NCBI GenBank assembly: GCA_038065555.1 | Contig: JBBTQS010000001.1 | Coordinates: forward strand, 363,751-427,750 | Direction: 5' to 3' | DNA length: 64,000 nucleotides | Source of the DNA: Patescibacteria group bacterium | Lineage (GTDB): Bacteria; Patescibacteriota; Patescibacteriia; Magasanikbacterales; JBBTQS01 | Shown here: piece by piece, positions 1 to 48,767 of the stretch | Numbering within the stretch: position 1 is the first letter of the stretch | Layout: every line of letters starts with the position of its first letter | The notes under the pieces: model-generated | Database searches by the model: none | What the model saw: the letters and a program-made list of their open reading frames with translations, nothing else | Told to the model about the DNA's origin: nothing | Program-made: the position numbers and the translations under genes

Positions 1-533
1 TAGAGATCGTACAACAACTGGTAGTACTCACCCTTGCGACCAAATACAACGGGCGCAAAAACCAGCACAGGTTCGAACGTGTCAGCCGCTCCTTCGCCAT
101 GTGTTGTTGCGATGACGCGCGACACGATTTCTTCCGGAGCCATCTTCGCAATAGGTCGCTCACACAGCACACAATGCGGCCGACCAATGCGCGCGTAGAG
201 CACGCGCAAGTAGTCATAGATCTCCGTGATGGTTGCAACGGTCGAGCGCGGATTCGCAGAATGCGCCTTTTGATCAATGGCGATTGCTGGCGAGAGTCCT
301 TCGATCTCATCCACATCTGGCTTCTCCATCACGCCGAGGAATTGTCGAGCATATGCTGACAATGATTCCACATACCGACGCTGCCCTTCGGCAAAAATAG
401 TATCAAAAGCAAGTGAAGACTTGCCCGAACCAGAGAGTCCCGTGAACACAACCATTTTGTTGCGTGGGATCTCGAGCGAGATGTTCTTCAGGTTGTGCTC
501 GCGCGCACCCTTGATGGTGATGAGTTCTTTCAT
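1..533 (-). CDS. uvrA: Excinuclease ABC subunit A (UvrA), N-terminal part; gene continues beyond the window start
   Basis: The minus-strand translation from the ATG at 533 reads [67 protein letters not shown]..., a canonical UvrA N-terminus with Walker A. The start overlaps the uvrB stop (ATGA). Confidence 0.9.
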
Positions 534-2635
534 ACGGTTGGTTCTACGATTGCTTCTTTTTGTTTTTTCTTCCTCGTGCGCTCATTCGCTGCTTGCAGCT
601 TCTCGAGTGACATGACTTCGTCACGCAATACTGCTGCGAGCTCGAACTGCAATTCCTTCGCCGCTTCCTTCATTTGCTTTTGCTTCTCGCGAATAATCGT
701 TGAGATCGGACGCGTATCACCGGAGAGCTCAATATCTAGCACGCGATTCCCTGTCTTACCCGACTTCAATGCACGCGCGCCTTCACGCTCACGCTTTTGT
801 GCATCTGGAACGATGCCGAACTCCTCGACGAGGTTACGGATCGACTTCTGAATTGTCTTCGGTGTAATGCCGTGCTCCTTGTTATACGCAAGTTGAATCT
901 CGCGACGACGATTGGTCTCGCGAATCGCACGATCAAGTGAACCTGTCATCTTGTCTGCATACAACACCACTTGGCCACCAACGTTACGTGCCGCACGACC
1001 AATCGTCTGGATGAGCGATGTCTCCGATCGCAAGAATCCTTCCTTGTCCGCGTCGAGAATCGCAACGAGCGATACTTCGGGCAAATCCAAACCTTCACGC
1101 AACAAGTTCACACCAACGAGCACCTCAAAAATTCCCTTGCGAAAATCCGAAAGAATCTCGATGCGCTCAATGGTCTTGATATCACTGTGCAGATAGCGCG
1201 CTGGCACCTTGCGATCCGCGAGATACTGCGCAAGATCCTCAGCCATCTTCTTGGTAAGTGTCGTTACAATCGTACGTTCGCCACGCGCACGTCGCTCGTC
1301 AATGCGCACAAGCACATCATCAACTTGTGATGGCTGTGTTGCAGAACCTGTCACTGGCGCAATGATGATTTCAGGATCTACAAGTCCTGTTGGACGGATG
1401 ATCTGTTGCACAACACGATCCGCATGCTCGATCTCATACTTGCCTGGTGTTGCGCTCACACAAATCGTCTGCGGCATCTTCGTCTCGAACTCATGGAACT
1501 GCATCGGACGATTATCGCGCGACGATGGCAAACGGAATCCATAATCAATGAGCGTGTCCTTACGTGCACGATCACCATTGAACATGCCACCAATCTGCGG
1601 AATCGTAACGTGCGATTCATCAATCACAAGCAACCAATCACGCTCTTTGTAGAAGAAGTAGTCGAGCAATGTATGCGGTGCAGAATCTGCTGGACGACCA
1701 TCGAAGTACCGTGAATAATTTTCGATCCCTTTGCAGTAACCGATTTGCTCTACCATTTCCATGTCGTAGTTGGTGCGACGCTTGAGACGCTCGGCTTCGA
1801 GCTCTTTGCCTTCCGCCCGCAACTGTTCGAGACGCACAGCGAGCTCTGCGCGAATCGACTCCACCGCGCCCTTACGCGAAGATTCTGCAACAACATAATG
1901 CTTCGCCGGGAAAATCCACAAATCCCCTGTCACCGCCTCACGTCGACGCTCAATAGGATCCATCCACTCGATTGCGATAACCGTGTTATCTGGGGAGAGT
2001 TCGAGAATGTACACTTTTTCCTCACTCGTCGACATGATCTCCAGTTGATTGCCGCGCAACTTGAACTGTCCGCGATCGAGCTCGCCACTCACCCGCTCGA
2101 AATGCATTCCAATAAGTCGCTCGAGCAATACTCCACGACCAAAATTGTCACCAACGCGCACGCGCAATCGCGTGTTCTCATATTGCATCGGCGAACCGAT
2201 GTTATAAATGCAAGAAACTGATGCAACAACAATGACATCTTCACGTGTGAGGATCGCCTGCGTCGCACTGTGGCGCAGACGGTCAATCTCCTCGTTGATC
2301 ATCGCTTCCTTCTCAATATAGGTATCTGTGTTAGGCAAATACGCCTCTGGTTGATAGTAGTCGTAGTACGATACGAAGTACTCCACCGCGTTATTCGGGA
2401 AAAACTCTCGAAACTCGCTACACAACTGCGCCGCAAGCGTCTTATTGTGCGCCAGAACCAATGTCGGACGCTGCACCTGCTGGATCACATTCGCCACGCT
2501 GAACGTCTTACCCGTAGCTGTTCCACCCAATAATGTCTGCAAATGCTCGCGTTTTTGTAGACCATCGACAAGACTGGCGATCGCTTTGGGCTGATCTCCT
2601 GCAGGCTGAAATGGTGAAGTAAGTTGAAATGCCAT
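530..2635 (-). CDS. uvrB: Excinuclease ABC subunit B (UvrB)
   Basis: The ORF translation contains [21 protein letters not shown] (Walker A) and helicase motifs ([13 protein letters not shown]). I trimmed the start to the ATG at 2633-2635 ([11 protein letters not shown]). Confidence 0.93.
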
Positions 2636-3141
2636 AGATATTGCAAATATGTTCCAAAAACGCACAAAACGGCCACTTTCGGGCCTTCTATAGCGACTTC
2701 TGTCTCAGATTCCATCCTAGCATGACCCACAAACCTTGACAATTTGCCCAAAAACTGCTAGTATTGGGCGCAACAGGAGGTAGTCCTATGGACATTCGAC
2801 AAAATAGGTGAGGTAGAGATCCCGGAAGATCTCCTCCGCCGCCCACTCTGTAGTACCACTCTCCGCACCTCGGTGCGGCGGCCACCAGGAGCTGGTTTCC
2901 TGAGATCTTGACCAAGGAGAAGGTGAATCCATGATCCCCGACGTGCACAAAGCACACGGCCTGACATACTGAAAAGTACGAAGGTTGGGGTAAAAAAACA
3001 ACAAAGCCGAGGCGACGAGCGAGTGCCAGGCGTCCACATAGGGCAAAATCTCGCACGGTGGCAATTCCGACCATCGGTGGCGCTAACGGCTAGCGCAACT
3101 CGGAAAATAGGCTCGACGCAAATCCAACTGCGGCGGGCCTT

Positions 3142-4146
3142 TTACTTTTTTTCACCCTCTTCTTCGATAGCATCTCCTAGTGTATCGGAGACTAGAGCGT
3201 ATGCCGCATCACGCATACTTGGGTATGAGGTCCCCATTTGCACCAAGGGCTGAATACTTGCCGGGGACCACGCATGCAACCGTTTGATAAATAGGTAGGT
3301 ACCATTACGTGCGTCCAAGTAGACTTGATTTTTTAATTCATGGAGCTGCACCCCTGGGTGGTGAGTAATATACTCCTCCATAACTGCCTCAAGAATACGG
3401 GTTGCTGGCCCAAGAGAGGTAATAGAAGTTATTGACTCACGAATAGGCGAATTCTCTGGTATTCCTTTTGCGTCACACCATTCATGACGAACCTGGCAAG
3501 CGATCAATTCCATCACCGCTTCGTGATATCCTTCAAGCCCCCGATCACGAAGCTTCCAGAAATCACCAAGCGCTTTCGCAGCAAATCGATTACCCTCGCG
3601 ACGTTGACGGAACTTCGCTTGCGAATTAAGGACCACACCCTCATGTTTCCCCTCAAGTGATTCAATCTGAAGCACTTGCTTTGCGGCAAGGTGACTGAGT
3701 TCATGCGATAACACCTGTAGTCGTTTCTCCTCATCCGCATACGGAGGGAAATACACATGACTATTCTGCACAAAAGCTTGATACGCATCATGCAACTCAG
3801 GAGTAGTCGCTACTCTTGCTTGGATGGTTGAAGGTTGCACTGGTACGAATTGATCCGCACGCGCAACAGGCTCATGCACCCCCAACTTAGACCAAAATGC
3901 TTGTGCAGCGATAAGCAGTTCTTGAATGGTTTGCAATTCTTCGCGGCTTGGCTCTCGATCAGCGTCTAGTACCGCTCTTTCGTTTGATGCAATTGCCTCT
4001 TGCGCAAATTGTGCTCGCTGTTCTGGAGTCCAAATCTGCTTCTTGTATGCAAGGTGCATTTCCTCAGGATCGCTCTCCTTCGGGAGAGGAGGGTGGGTCT
4101 GCGCAAATCGCACCTCTACATTGCGTCGTGATTCGTAGGAAGCCAT
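3142..4146 (-). CDS. Hypothetical protein with an HExxH (HELSH) putative zinc-metallopeptidase motif
   Basis: 334-aa ORF with good coding appearance. An HELSHLAAKQ motif resembles ImmA/IrrE or YgjP-like metallopeptidase signatures. No other recognisable domain. Confidence 0.6.
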   Translation of the reverse strand: MASYESRRNVEVRFAQTHPPLPKESDPEEMHLAYKKQIWTPEQRAQFAQEAIASNERAVLDADREPSREELQTIQELLIAAQAFWSKLGVHEPVARADQFVPVQPSTIQARVATTPELHDAYQAFVQNSHVYFPPYADEEKRLQVLSHELSHLAAKQVLQIESLEGKHEGVVLNSQAKFRQRREGNRFAAKALGDFWKLRDRGLEGYHEAVMELIACQVRHEWCDAKGIPENSPIRESITSITSLGPATRILEAVMEEYITHHPGVQLHELKNQVYLDARNGTYLFIKRLHAWSPASIQPLVQMGTSYPSMRDAAYALVSDTLGDAIEEEGEKK

Positions 4147-18724: not shown

Positions 18725-19429
18725 TTATGCAATACAATGTGTTTCGAGATAGGTCTTGGCTGCACGCATGGCGCCGATGGATGTGTTGTAATCCATACGC
18801 ATCGGTCCGATGATTCCCATGAGACTCTTCGTGTTCCCTTCCCACGCAAATGGGACGAACATGATGGTGCACGAGTCACCAAACGGATTGCCTGGGCCAA
18901 TATGCATATGCATATCCTTGTCCCCGATGAGACGGTAGAGATCTGGCGCAATGTCATCAAATCGATCGAGCAACGCCGTAACATTTTGCACCGTGCCCAT
19001 TTCTGCAAATTCAGGTTGACTGAATAAGTGCGTGAGACCGGTGTAGTATGTCTGCTCTCGCGAGAGCACAAGGAACACAGCAGCATTGAGCGCTTCTGCC
19101 TGTTGCTTTGCAATATGTTTGATGGCGCGCGCGATATCTGTTACATCTGGCTGCTCAGACAATGCTGCAAAGAACGATTCAGGAACGGTTGGCTGCAGGA
19201 AATGCTCGACATACTTGCGGTATGCACGCGCAGTAGGAATGCGACCCGCACTCGTATGCGGCGAGATCACATAGCCTTCTTCTTCCAACTCCTTGAGGTC
19301 ATTGCGCACCGTTGCTGAGCTTACCGAAAGGTCGAGGAACGTAAGGAGCGCCTGGGAGCCAACTGGCTCAGCAGACGTAACGTACAAATCCACGATTCCT
19401 TTGAGTAATTCCTCTTTGCGGTCTGGCAT
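18725..19429 (-). CDS. hrcA: Heat-inducible transcription repressor HrcA
   Basis: VGSQALLTFLDLSVSSATVRNDLKELEEEGYVISPHTSAGRIPT is the HrcA winged-helix signature. The start is probably the ATG at 19429 rather than the TTG at 19444. Confidence 0.88.
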   Translation of the reverse strand: MPDRKEELLKGIVDLYVTSAEPVGSQALLTFLDLSVSSATVRNDLKELEEEGYVISPHTSAGRIPTARAYRKYVEHFLQPTVPESFFAALSEQPDVTDIARAIKHIAKQQAEALNAAVFLVLSREQTYYTGLTHLFSQPEFAEMGTVQNVTALLDRFDDIAPDLYRLIGDKDMHMHIGPGNPFGDSCTIMFVPFAWEGNTKSLMGIIGPMRMDYNTSIGAMRAAKTYLETHCIA

Positions 19430-19456
19430 AGGGCTTGCCCCCAATATAACGCAAGA

Positions 19457-19483
19457 TTAGCACTCATGTCAAGAGAGTGCTAA
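19457..19483 (-). promoter_or_regulatory. CIRCE operator (HrcA binding site) upstream of hrcA-grpE-hsp20-dnaK-dnaJ
   Basis: TTAGCACTC-ATGTCAAGA-GAGTGCTAA is a perfect match to the CIRCE consensus TTAGCACTC-N9-GAGTGCTAA, about 28 nt upstream of the hrcA ATG. Confidence 0.92.
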
Positions 19484-19503
19484 TCACTAAGAAATCCGCG
19501 GAT

Positions 19504-43615: not shown

Positions 43616-43626
43616 ACGTATGGTGA

Positions 43627-44901
43627 TTATTCAGCGAGAAATGATTCAAATCGTTCTGGAGTCTCGAATGGCCCAATGACCGCGAGCTTTGCCTTAGTGA
43701 AATCGAATACCTCTGCAGCAACCTTCTGAATATCTTCGCGGGTTACCGCTTCGTACTCGGAGAGCTTCTCTTCTGGTGTGCGAACTTTGCCCACGAGTAA
43801 CTGTTGCTCTAGGAACATCTGCGCGACAGTGGAGCTGTCTTCGAGCGCGAGAATCATGCTGCCGCGGACATTACCCTTGGCATACGCAAGTTCCTTGGCA
43901 GTTACTCCTTTCTTCGCTACTTTGCGCAATTCATCTACGATCACGCGCAATGCTTCATCAATGCGCTCAGTGTGTAGACCTGCGTGAATGTAGGTGTTGC
44001 CGCAATCGCGATACGTCTCAATATCCGTGCGAACACGATACGCAAGTCCACGCTTCTCACGCACTTCTACAAAAAGTCTCGAACTCATGGATCCGCCCAT
44101 GATACTCTGCAAGAGTGCGAGTGCTGGCACGCGTGGATCACCCTTCTTGTACGCAGGGAATCCCAGAGCGATGTGCACTTGATCTGTTTGTTTGAATTTG
44201 AGATGTACGCGCTCCTTGGACGCTGCAGGTACACTCTTCTTGAATGCTGGCATCACACCCTTCTTGCGTCCTTTGCCGAAGAGGCTTGCAATTGCTGCGG
44301 ACTGCTTGTCTGTGTAGTTACCTGCAACAGCCACCACCATTTTGTCATGGTGGTAGAATCGGTCGCGATACGTCACCATATCTTTGCGCGTGAGCGCGTT
44401 GATGATCTCAGGTGTTCCGCCGATGCGATACCCGAGTGGCGATCCTTCGTGCATGATGATTTCGAATTCTTCCTGAACGGTACGCGTCGGCGTATCCTCG
44501 TACATGCGCAGCTCCTCATTGATTACACCTTTTTCACGTTCGAATTCCTTCGTATCGAAAAGACTGTGGAAGAGCATGTCTTCGAGCAAGTCTGCAGCGA
44601 GCAACAATTTGTTGGAGTCGATCTTGATGTAATAGACGGTCCACTCTTTGCTCGTGAACGCATTCCACTCAGCGCCAACGCCATCAATCTCTTCCGTAAT
44701 ATCCTTGCTCGTCGGACGACGCTTGGTTCCTTTGAACATCAAATGCTCAATGAAGTGAGAAATACCATTGATACGCTCTTCTTCGTAGCGCGATCCGACA
44801 GGAAATCCAACAATAATTGTTGCCGACGCCGTGTGATCCTGCGGCACGGTAATATACGTCGCACCATTTGCGAGTTTCTTCTTCTGGAATACGGTTTTCA
44901 T
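43627..44901 (-). CDS. M16-family zinc peptidase (insulinase/pitrilysin-like)
   Basis: Inverted zinc motif HFIEHLMFKGT...E. 424 aa, with both M16 half-domains. Confidence 0.85.
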   Translation of the reverse strand: MKTVFQKKKLANGATYITVPQDHTASATIIVGFPVGSRYEEERINGISHFIEHLMFKGTKRRPTSKDITEEIDGVGAEWNAFTSKEWTVYYIKIDSNKLLLAADLLEDMLFHSLFDTKEFEREKGVINEELRMYEDTPTRTVQEEFEIIMHEGSPLGYRIGGTPEIINALTRKDMVTYRDRFYHHDKMVVAVAGNYTDKQSAAIASLFGKGRKKGVMPAFKKSVPAASKERVHLKFKQTDQVHIALGFPAYKKGDPRVPALALLQSIMGGSMSSRLFVEVREKRGLAYRVRTDIETYRDCGNTYIHAGLHTERIDEALRVIVDELRKVAKKGVTAKELAYAKGNVRGSMILALEDSSTVAQMFLEQQLLVGKVRTPEEKLSEYEAVTREDIQKVAAEVFDFTKAKLAVIGPFETPERFESFLAE

Positions 44902-47976: not shown

Positions 47977-48759
47977 TTAGATTCCATACAGAGCGAAGAA
48001 TAATGTTTCAAAAAGTAATTTGGGGTGAATATTGCGCGAGATATCGTGCCGCGCTCGGCTAATTGCCCTTGCCGCCTTCACGACTCGCATTGCATCTCCC
48101 CCGCTGCCCACGCGGCTGCGCAGTAACTCGCGCGTATACACATGCCACCAGTACAGGAGCTGCGCGAGCATGCGCCGCTGCACTGCGTGATCTGCTTTCT
48201 TGTCCTTCTCGCCGAACAACGGCTCGAGAAGTTGGCGAGCTTCATGCATCGGGCGCAATCGCACCGCGTCGAAGAGCTCGCGATGTTCGATGTACGCAGG
48301 ATGCGTTGCAACCGCCGTCGCATCAACATGCACGCGATACACGCTCACACGCGATGCAATCGTGGGAAGCACCGCATCCCATGCATCAGACATAAGCAAA
48401 AAATATGAATGTGCTGGCGGCTCCTCCAATACCTTGAGCAACGCATTAGCAGCACCCTGACTCATATGATGCGCATCTGTCACCACAATCCAACGAGGAT
48501 GCGCGGCGTCAGCAGTCGTCATCAAGAATTCTTTGCACGCGCGAATTTGTTCGATAGTAATATCCTTGCCCGATGGTGCAACGTGCATCTCGTATCCAAC
48601 CGAAGATGCGCCTCCATACACTGTTGTGAGAAATGTTCGGCTCAGTCCCGACAAATCCGCAGCACTACATCCCGCAAGCGCAATAGCATGCGGCAAAGCA
48701 CGCGTCTCCCAGAGGCGCGTCAGGAGCCCCACAATGTGATGGGACGCTGCATGATACAT
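47977..48759 (-). CDS. holB: DNA polymerase III delta-prime subunit (HolB)-like AAA+ protein
   Basis: Trimmed to the ATG at 48759 (MYHAASHHIVG...). HAIALAG, the Walker B region (IVVTDAHHMSQGAANALLKVLEEPP) and the SRC-like ASR motif (TIASRV) are present. Confidence 0.8.
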   Translation of the reverse strand: MYHAASHHIVGLLTRLWETRALPHAIALAGCSAADLSGLSRTFLTTVYGGASSVGYEMHVAPSGKDITIEQIRACKEFLMTTADAAHPRWIVVTDAHHMSQGAANALLKVLEEPPAHSYFLLMSDAWDAVLPTIASRVSVYRVHVDATAVATHPAYIEHRELFDAVRLRPMHEARQLLEPLFGEKDKKADHAVQRRMLAQLLYWWHVYTRELLRSRVGSGGDAMRVVKAARAISRARHDISRNIHPKLLFETLFFALYGI

Positions 48760-48767
48760 AGTCAAGG

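Follow-up and report, generated by a model that had tools for sequence, protein, structure and literature searches.

A candidate non-coding RNA gene of a clade-restricted family, directed away from uvrB in a Patescibacteria genome

The region described here is a gap upstream of the uvrB gene in a genome of the Patescibacteria (candidate phyla radiation, CPR). It occupies positions 2636-3141 of the window, by which we mean the whole stretch of 64,000 nucleotides (nt) that was analysed and that comes from the groundwater metagenome contig ERZ1292633 (Hain_H41_02um). An earlier account of this DNA, made from its letters (hereafter the sequence-only reading), had described the gap as free of genes, and our analysis agrees: it runs from the start of uvrB to the stop codon of a gene for a protein of 334 amino acids (aa), both on the minus strand. 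The gap most likely holds a genuine candidate gene for a non-coding RNA (ncRNA) of a new, clade-restricted family, and we think it probable that it encodes a stand-alone structured ncRNA of about 380 nt, read from the plus strand with its own promoter and terminator. The features on which the argument draws are the following (SD, Shine-Dalgarno; ORF, open reading frame).

530-2635, minus strand: uvrB, start codon ATG at 2635-2633, with the Pfam domains UvrB, UvrB_inter, Helicase_C and UVR
2655-2690, minus strand: conserved 36-nt block in the predicted 5′ leader of uvrB, reading UAGAAGGCCCGAAAGUGGCCGUUUUGUGCGUUUUUG
2714-2742, minus strand: predicted uvrB promoter, TTGTCA at 2742-2737, 17-nt spacer ending in TGC, TAGGAT at 2719-2714
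2736-2764, plus strand: promoter of the RNA, TTGACA at 2736-2741, 17-nt spacer ending in TGC, TAGTAT at 2759-2764
2771-3152, plus strand: predicted ncRNA of about 380 nt, bounded by the inferred start and the last U of the terminator
2775-2811, plus strand: SD-like AGGAGGT (2775-2781) and, 6 nt later, a mini-ORF from ATG at 2788 to TGA at 2811
2816-2833, plus strand: hairpin H1, GAGAUC, loop CCGGAA, GAUCUC
2858-2881, plus strand: ACUCU-H2-CGG unit, with hairpin H2 (CCGCAC-CUCG-GUGCGG) at 2863-2878
3005-3105, plus strand: conserved 3′ domain of 101 nt, holding H3 and a GCGAG..CUCGC stem (3019-3054)
3080-3096, plus strand: hairpin H3, GCGCUA-ACGGC-UAGCGC
3110-3152, plus strand: intrinsic terminator, stem GGCUCGaCGC..GCGgCGGGCC at 3110-3139, then UUUUACUUUUUUU at 3140-3152
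3142-4146, minus strand: gene of 334 aa, stop codon at 3142-3144, with an HExxH motif (SHELSH)

The sequence-only reading had put forward an ncRNA in general terms. What carries that claim is the conservation of promoter and terminator among relatives, the non-coding character of the region with its frameshifting indels, the compensatory changes in hairpins H1-H3 and the selective constraint on the 3′ domain; the RNA belongs to no Rfam family.

The homologue set consists of five distinct sequences from two species-level lineages. The first lineage comprises the window, a second strain found by exact UvrB look-up (L002) and a third strain taken from a cluster listing (L096); the other comprises L003 (= L090) and L083, in which UvrB is 92-93% identical to that of the window. 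Over 5.6 kb, identity between the window and L002 amounts to 97.2%; within the gap it is 95.3%, and several indels of 1-2 nt occur there. Third codon positions of uvrB are 51% identical between the window and L083/L003, so that neutral sites can be regarded as saturated (window versus L083), and the 334-aa gene retains 56% nucleotide and 47.5% protein identity between the window and L083. At this divergence the promoter, CAGGAGG, a UAGG..AGGU motif, H1, the ACUCU-H2-CGG unit, GAAGGU and the 3′ domain are all kept. Alignment with the orthologous uvrB upstream regions, the comparison suggested by the sequence-only reading, thus shows that the promoter, the position of the terminator, the hairpins and the 3′ domain are conserved in the clade.

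The promoter had already been pointed out in the sequence-only reading; the near-consensus match is real, but its hexamers had been placed 2 nt too high (2738-2743 and 2761-2766). It agrees with the consensus at 10 of 12 positions and carries the TG of an extended -10 element (consensus scan), in a region where four promoter-like sites were found against 0.8 expected from shuffled sequences. From its position, the RNA is predicted to start at about 2771. The -35 box, the 17-nt spacing and the TGnTAnnnT element are kept in L002, L096, L003 and L083, with spacers that differ in sequence. At the other end of the gap lies an intrinsic terminator, absent from the sequence-only reading, whose fold reaches -17.2 kcal/mol (RNAfold) and which extends across the stop codon of the convergent gene for the 334-aa protein. 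A simple terminator scan overlooked it, probably because of its 8-10-nt loop and its bulges. A hairpin and U-run of different sequence stand at the same place in L003 and L083 as well as in the more distant relatives L084, L086 (two of them) and L089, the hairpins of the various lineages ranging from -15 to -26 kcal/mol and each being followed by a U-run. Since promoter and terminator bound it, the transcript can be delimited to about 380 nt, and the orientation of the promoter and of the U-run assigns it to the plus strand. An A-rich tract at 2987-3008 is 73% complementary to the U-tail region of the terminator (3136-3157), so that the two bracket the 3′ domain; this complementarity is not conserved in L003 and L083 and is therefore probably incidental.

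The view that no convincing protein is encoded in the gap also holds, as neither strand carries a conserved protein or a shared ORF. Indels of 1-2 nt fall inside the conserved blocks, between strains and between species, and translations of both strands change frame from one lineage to the next. These frameshifting indels, together with the lack of a shared ORF, indicate that the RNA is not protein-coding. Three minus-strand ORFs of 92-128 aa lie within the gap and are not conserved; they owe their existence to the scarcity of T on the plus strand, where A exceeds T with an AT skew of up to +0.37 over 2801-3100. At the 5′ end of the predicted RNA, CAGGAGG is invariant in all five homologous sequences and is followed, about 6-8 nt past the GGAGG core, by a start codon (AUG, AUG, UUG and AUG in the homologues). 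The resulting mini-ORFs have 4-9 codons and specify unrelated peptides, namely MDIRQNR (the seven codons of the window), MDFRQNRLR, (L)KPY and MLLR. A second ORF, of 13 codons at 2932-2973, has no counterpart in L003 or L083, and in L002 its stop codon is gone.

The four hairpins quoted in the sequence-only reading are all present, at 2816-2833 (H1), about 2863-2878 (H2), 2942-2958 and 3071-3080. H1 reads GGGGCC-CCGCAU-GGCCCC in L083 and GGGGC..GCCCC in L003; both partners have changed in half of its six pairs (three), and pairing is retained. In H2, whose loop varies, pair 4 is C-G in the window, C.A in L002 (an intermediate) and U-A in L096, and pair 6, likewise C-G in the window, is U.G in L003 and U-A in L083. 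One compensatory pair, A-U to G-C, was found in H3, which brings the covarying pairs over H1-H3 to six. Between the window and L003/L083, identity reaches 84-87% in the 3′ domain, as compared with 37-49% in the remaining RNA, and the differences among homologues within this domain gather in loops; the middle of the RNA falls to 37% and contains lineage-specific hairpin insertions. As judged from this alignment, the 3′ domain is under strong purifying selection.

The family appears to be narrow. A UvrB search of 5.8 billion proteins gave five clusters at identities of at least 68%, and a scan of genome contigs with UvrB returned L003 as its only match in the clade. A covariance model of the 3′ domain, run over 811 kb of Patescibacteria uvrB neighbourhoods, recovered the known copies only, and we did not find an RNA of this kind described for CPR in the literature. 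We also found no similarity of the gap RNA to phage and plasmid collections, which argues against a phage or plasmid origin, and no repeats, tandem arrays or TIGR-like arrays at the gap. So far, the RNA family is thus new and restricted to one genus-level clade of Patescibacteria. Few ncRNAs have been described in these bacteria, whose genomes are small and tightly packed. As a locus of about 500 nt is given over, in such a compact genome, to a conserved RNA that appears to be strongly transcribed, the gap RNA is a reasonable target for metatranscriptomics, and it could be entered in RNA family databases, where it would form a new family of narrow range.

We propose that a strong sigma70-type promoter, whose -35 box overlaps that of the uvrB promoter, would direct transcription outward from uvrB, and that this transcription would end at the hairpin and U-run that also close the convergent 334-aa gene. 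The RNA would be modular, with a 5′ AGGAGG and tiny ORF, H1 and H2 with lineage-specific insertions between them, a variable middle, the 3′ domain and the terminator. It may be made as a discrete, stable molecule that acts in trans through its 3′ domain; because the conserved block extends over 100 nt, protein binding or a folded core is favoured over a short pairing seed. The 5′ SD element with its mini-ORF and the terminator hairpin could mainly stabilise the ends of the RNA. In bacteria that contain RNase J, SD-like elements near the 5′ end, termed STAB-SD, protect transcripts. The gap RNA resembles these transcripts in its invariant AGGAGG, about 5 nt from the predicted 5′ end, and in the lack of conservation of the peptide that follows, and differs from them in having a start codon and an ORF of 4-9 codons after the AGGAGG. 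We infer that the SD element is kept for its own sake, as a 5′-end stabiliser or a small regulatory ORF, and not as part of a peptide gene.

In its general make-up, the gap RNA is similar to genes of stand-alone small RNAs (sRNAs) and mid-size ncRNAs, which are intergenic, non-coding and modular, have their own sigma70 promoter and terminator and show a narrow range. In contrast to most base-pairing sRNAs, it is longer, at about 380 nt, and has a conserved domain of 100 nt instead of a short seed. It also departs from typical stand-alone sRNA genes by its 5′ ribosome-binding site and mini-ORF and by its lack of an Rfam family.

Several observations weigh against this interpretation. Both ends of the transcript are predicted from the promoter and the terminator. 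Folding of the whole RNA is only modestly better than that of shuffled sequences (z = -2.0 on the plus strand versus -1.4 on the minus strand). Taken by itself, the 3′ domain shows no advantage in folding over shuffled sequences (z = -0.7), which leaves its fold tentative. The covariation comes from few independent events, in five sequences of two species-level lineages, and wobble pairs do not discriminate between the strands. No target was found for the RNA, and its duplex with the uvrB leader block at 2655-2690 is no better than with shuffled leaders. A scan of metagenomes (JGI contigs, exact DNA pattern) gave no further lineage, yielding a duplicate of L003 and three chance matches in GC-rich coding DNA. 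Finally, where UvrB identity drops to 69-74%, the transcripts predicted at this position differ and cannot be aligned with the gap RNA.

This last point leads to another explanation, in which RNA polymerase binding at a strong outward promoter, or divergent transcription as such, sets the expression of uvrB and the RNA is largely a terminated by-product. The predicted uvrB promoter, which matches the consensus at 9 of 12 positions plus TG (consensus scan), has a -35 box (TTGTCA) that overlaps that of the RNA promoter (TTGACA) on the opposite strand with a 1-nt offset, an overlap missed by the sequence-only reading; the two starts lie about 64 nt apart. Gene-free gaps of about 480-700 nt are also found upstream of uvrB in L084/L085 (UvrB 74% identical to that of the window), L086-L088 (69%) and L089 (69%). 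The layout of the RNA promoter recurs in L084, L086 and L089, where an outward TTGACA-17-TAnnnT is paired with an opposite-strand, uvrB-facing TTGTCA-17/18-TAnnnT at the same 1-nt offset as in the window. This back-to-back arrangement, with spacers of 17-18 nt, thus recurs in each of the seven loci, which represent five lineages, regardless of whether their outward transcripts are related, and would allow coupling by promoter competition or local supercoiling. The outward transcripts predicted in these relatives measure about 470 nt in L084, about 190 and 130 nt for the units of L086 and about 560 nt in L089, and all close with hairpin and U-run terminators. Comparison of these transcripts with the window RNA and with each other by nhmmer, blastn and k-mers stayed at chance level, and none of them matched Rfam. 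That the downstream transcripts (190-560 nt) cannot be aligned between lineages, each being closed by its own terminator, speaks for this view; transcription as such may count for more than the RNA that it yields.

The conservation of 84-87% in a 101-nt block situated 235 nt past the start remains unexplained by promoter coupling, as do the compensatory changes in H1-H3. Moreover, L094 (UvrB 68% identical) lacks a TTGACA-type outward promoter upstream of uvrB, and other Patescibacteria with 55-63% UvrB identity are mostly without such a promoter. We therefore regard coupling as possible but rather unlikely as the account of this locus, bearing in mind that it and the ncRNA gene can both be true. 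As judged by its distribution, the bidirectional promoter with a shared -35 box is older and more widespread than the window RNA, which motivates the view that divergent transcription itself affects uvrB and gives a hint that it may be linked to uvrB control in the clade. The locus resembles bidirectional promoters in having two outward sigma70-type promoters in one short control region, conserved over five lineages. Widespread symmetric divergent promoters share their -10 region, unlike the uvrB pair, which shares the -35 box. This overlapping pair is the most generalisable by-product of our analysis.

The gap RNA could also be a cis-regulatory leader, whose 3′ domain senses a ligand or protein and relieves termination, so that transcription continues antisense into the 334-aa HExxH gene; ancestrally, it would have continued into the p206/p213-murJ-lepA operon. 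In terminating riboswitches, a conserved domain precedes a terminator that is itself little conserved, and the 3′ domain has such a terminator directly after it. L084, which lacks the 334-aa gene (as do the more distant relatives examined), offers a further parallel. At 3520-4000 of that locus (reverse), its non-homologous transcript has a 12-bp terminator about 20 nt before the ATG of a 206-aa gene that runs in the same direction and has murJ and lepA downstream of it. Because its terminator just precedes a co-directional gene, with no room for a separate promoter, this transcript looks like a leader or attenuator. In the window and the homologues, by contrast, nothing co-directional lies past the terminator, and there is no conserved anti-terminator pairing, GCGACGAGC/GCUCGACGC being found only in the window lineage (by inspection). 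The stretch of about 235 nt of variable sequence with a mini-ORF before the domain would be unusual for a riboswitch, and the riboswitch and leader models of Rfam gave no match to the gap RNA. On balance, a leader is unlikely here. It is similarly doubtful, though worth considering, that the 3′ domain is a new clade-specific RNA module, a sensor or protein-binding core that would serve as part of a ribonucleoprotein or in termination control of antisense read-through; if true, this module and the shared -35 pair would tie an RNA-based switch to uvrB expression in bacteria in which our analysis turned up no DNA-damage regulator.

One could also take the transcript for an mRNA of very small peptides, specified by the mini-ORF at 2788-2811 and perhaps by the 13-codon ORF. 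A perfect AGGAGG with a start codon about 6-8 nt past its core, retained in all five sequences despite turnover, speaks for such a role. We consider it highly unlikely, given peptides of 4-9 residues that are unrelated to one another, a second ORF that does not persist and a conserved 3′ domain 200 nt downstream that would have no explanation.

The sequence-only reading had raised, as a speculation, that the gap encodes the RNA of RNase P. With its length of about 350-400 nt and its stand-alone character, the gap RNA is indeed like RNase P RNA (RF00010, RF00011), and the window-specific GGAGGUAGUCC resembles the 5′ strand of helix P4. We searched Rfam 15 at the gathering threshold in the window and in the uvrB loci of 15 relatives, at E<=10 in an 801-nt gap region, in sub-stretches of 246 and 121 nt and in four relatives' loci, and at E<=5 in the whole window. 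At gathering scores or at E<=10 (801, 246 and 121 nt), there was no match to RNase P, 6S, transfer-messenger RNA (tmRNA) or signal recognition particle (SRP) RNA, and the scans at E<=10 were sensitive enough to list chance matches of 9-17 bits. No RNase P match was found beside uvrB in the relatives' loci, and at E<=5 these four families were likewise without a match in the rest of the 64-kb window. Rfam matches to AsrC were dismissed, as they lie inside lepA.

RNase P RNAs of CPR may lack several helices and fall below Rfam cut-offs, and have been recovered with RF00010 at a 5-bit threshold (Lui et al., PMC8172020). Because such forms can escape the cut-offs, we also tested this assignment by comparison. 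Both motifs on which it was based are present, GGAGGTAGTCC at 2776-2786 and GTCCACATAGGGC at 3032-3044. In the homologues, the proposed P4 5′ strand GGAGGUAGUCC becomes GGAGGUGGCUC in L003 and GGAGGCACGAC in L083, the SD-like CAGGAGG alone being kept, and the proposed 3′ strand GUCCACAUAGGGC becomes GACAAACAUAGGCA in L002 and GACAACAUAGGGC in L083 with no compensation. The universal P4 5′ strand (GAGGAAAGUCC-like) is not kept among the homologues. An alternative 3′ strand, AUAGGCU at 3106-3112, can form a P4-like pairing of 7 bp with AG(U)CCUAU at 2783-2790, including a bulged U; this pairing was noted by inspection in the window only, and the strand has no counterpart in L003 or L083. The sequence CGAGCGAG..GCCAGG..AUAGGG also loosely recalls the P5/P15 junction of Escherichia coli M1 RNA. 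Furthermore, helices P1-P3 cannot be present, since the conserved promoter leaves about 5 nt between the inferred start and the P4-like motif. An essential RNA should also be traceable in relatives with 69-74% UvrB identity, and this family is confined to one clade. With no covariance-model match, no conservation of the P4 motifs or their pairing and no room for P1-P3, the assignment is effectively refuted, and even a strongly diverged or reduced RNase P RNA is extremely improbable. A false lead is thereby removed: the gap RNA is almost certainly not the RNase P RNA of this organism.

An RNA that binds RNA polymerase, either 6S-like, as the sequence-only reading had also suggested, or Ms1-like, has in its favour that 6S RNAs are poorly conserved in sequence and that the gap RNA stands alone, has a strong promoter and looks abundant; it is just as improbable in view of the lack of a match to 6S or Ms1 models, a length about twice that of usual 6S and multi-branched predicted folds with several hairpins and unpaired 5′ and 3′ ends, in place of the long rod with a central bubble (about 180 nt in 6S). 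The two remaining named families fared no better: for tmRNA, Rfam gave no match and ARAGORN found none in 2000-4000, and for SRP RNA there was no model match and H1 is a plain 6-bp stem without conserved internal loops.

On the uvrB side of the gap, the 36-nt block at 2655-2690, overlooked in the sequence-only reading, is 100% identical in the window, L002, L096, L003 and L083, as compared with about 65% for the flanking leader. It consists of a short hairpin with a GAAA loop followed by a U-rich run, GUUUUGUGCGUUUUUG, and ends about 20 nt before the uvrB ATG. This block belongs to uvrB, not to the gap RNA, and may serve as an attenuator, as a site for a protein or as an element of translation. 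No obvious SD sequence was found upstream of uvrB. The uvrB leader of L086 has an analogous hairpin and U-run of different sequence. A half-match to a Cheo-type box had been reported next to the uvrB start; GTTC is indeed present at 2651-2654, but it is not conserved, as its 10-nt segment is deleted in the sister lineage, and we rejected a Cheo/LexA-type box beside uvrB, which is not conserved in the homologous loci. On the other side of the uvrB promoter pair in L086 (3428-4000, reverse), two promoter-to-terminator units stand in tandem and a third TTGACA promoter serves the next gene. These units carry CU-rich motifs resembling anti-SD sequences (ACUCUCUCUCC twice and CCCUCCCC) in loops or linkers, and look like small regulatory RNAs.

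The UvrB protein of the window is identical to record MEK7647761.1 (Patescibacteria group bacterium), and its closest relatives come from Patescibacteria/CPR metagenome-assembled genomes labelled Magasanikbacteria or Uhrbacteria. The genes uvrB, uvrA and uvrC adjoin one another and are co-directional in the clade (window, L001 and L083), with a 4-nt overlap of uvrB and uvrA in L001. The 334-aa protein has no Pfam family and no match in the PDB; one weak match to an eCIS_core/DUF4157-like sequence was obtained at its HExxH region (E = 0.044). It evolves very fast, with 47.5% aa identity where UvrB has 92-93%.

The sequence-only reading had also called the gap the longest in the window. This is plausible, as a greedy ORF tiling leaves no other gap above 390 nt, but the tiling is crude, a spurious antisense ORF having covered the gap at 2636-3141 itself. 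The next-largest stretches without a long ORF in this tiling (368-390 nt) are 19114-19503, 48396-48767 and 43616-43983. Elsewhere in the window, the minus strand at 60614-60778 matches the ribosomal protein L10 leader RF00557 with 40.1 bits (gathering score 44, E = 0.005), and is probably a genuine, slightly diverged L10 leader.

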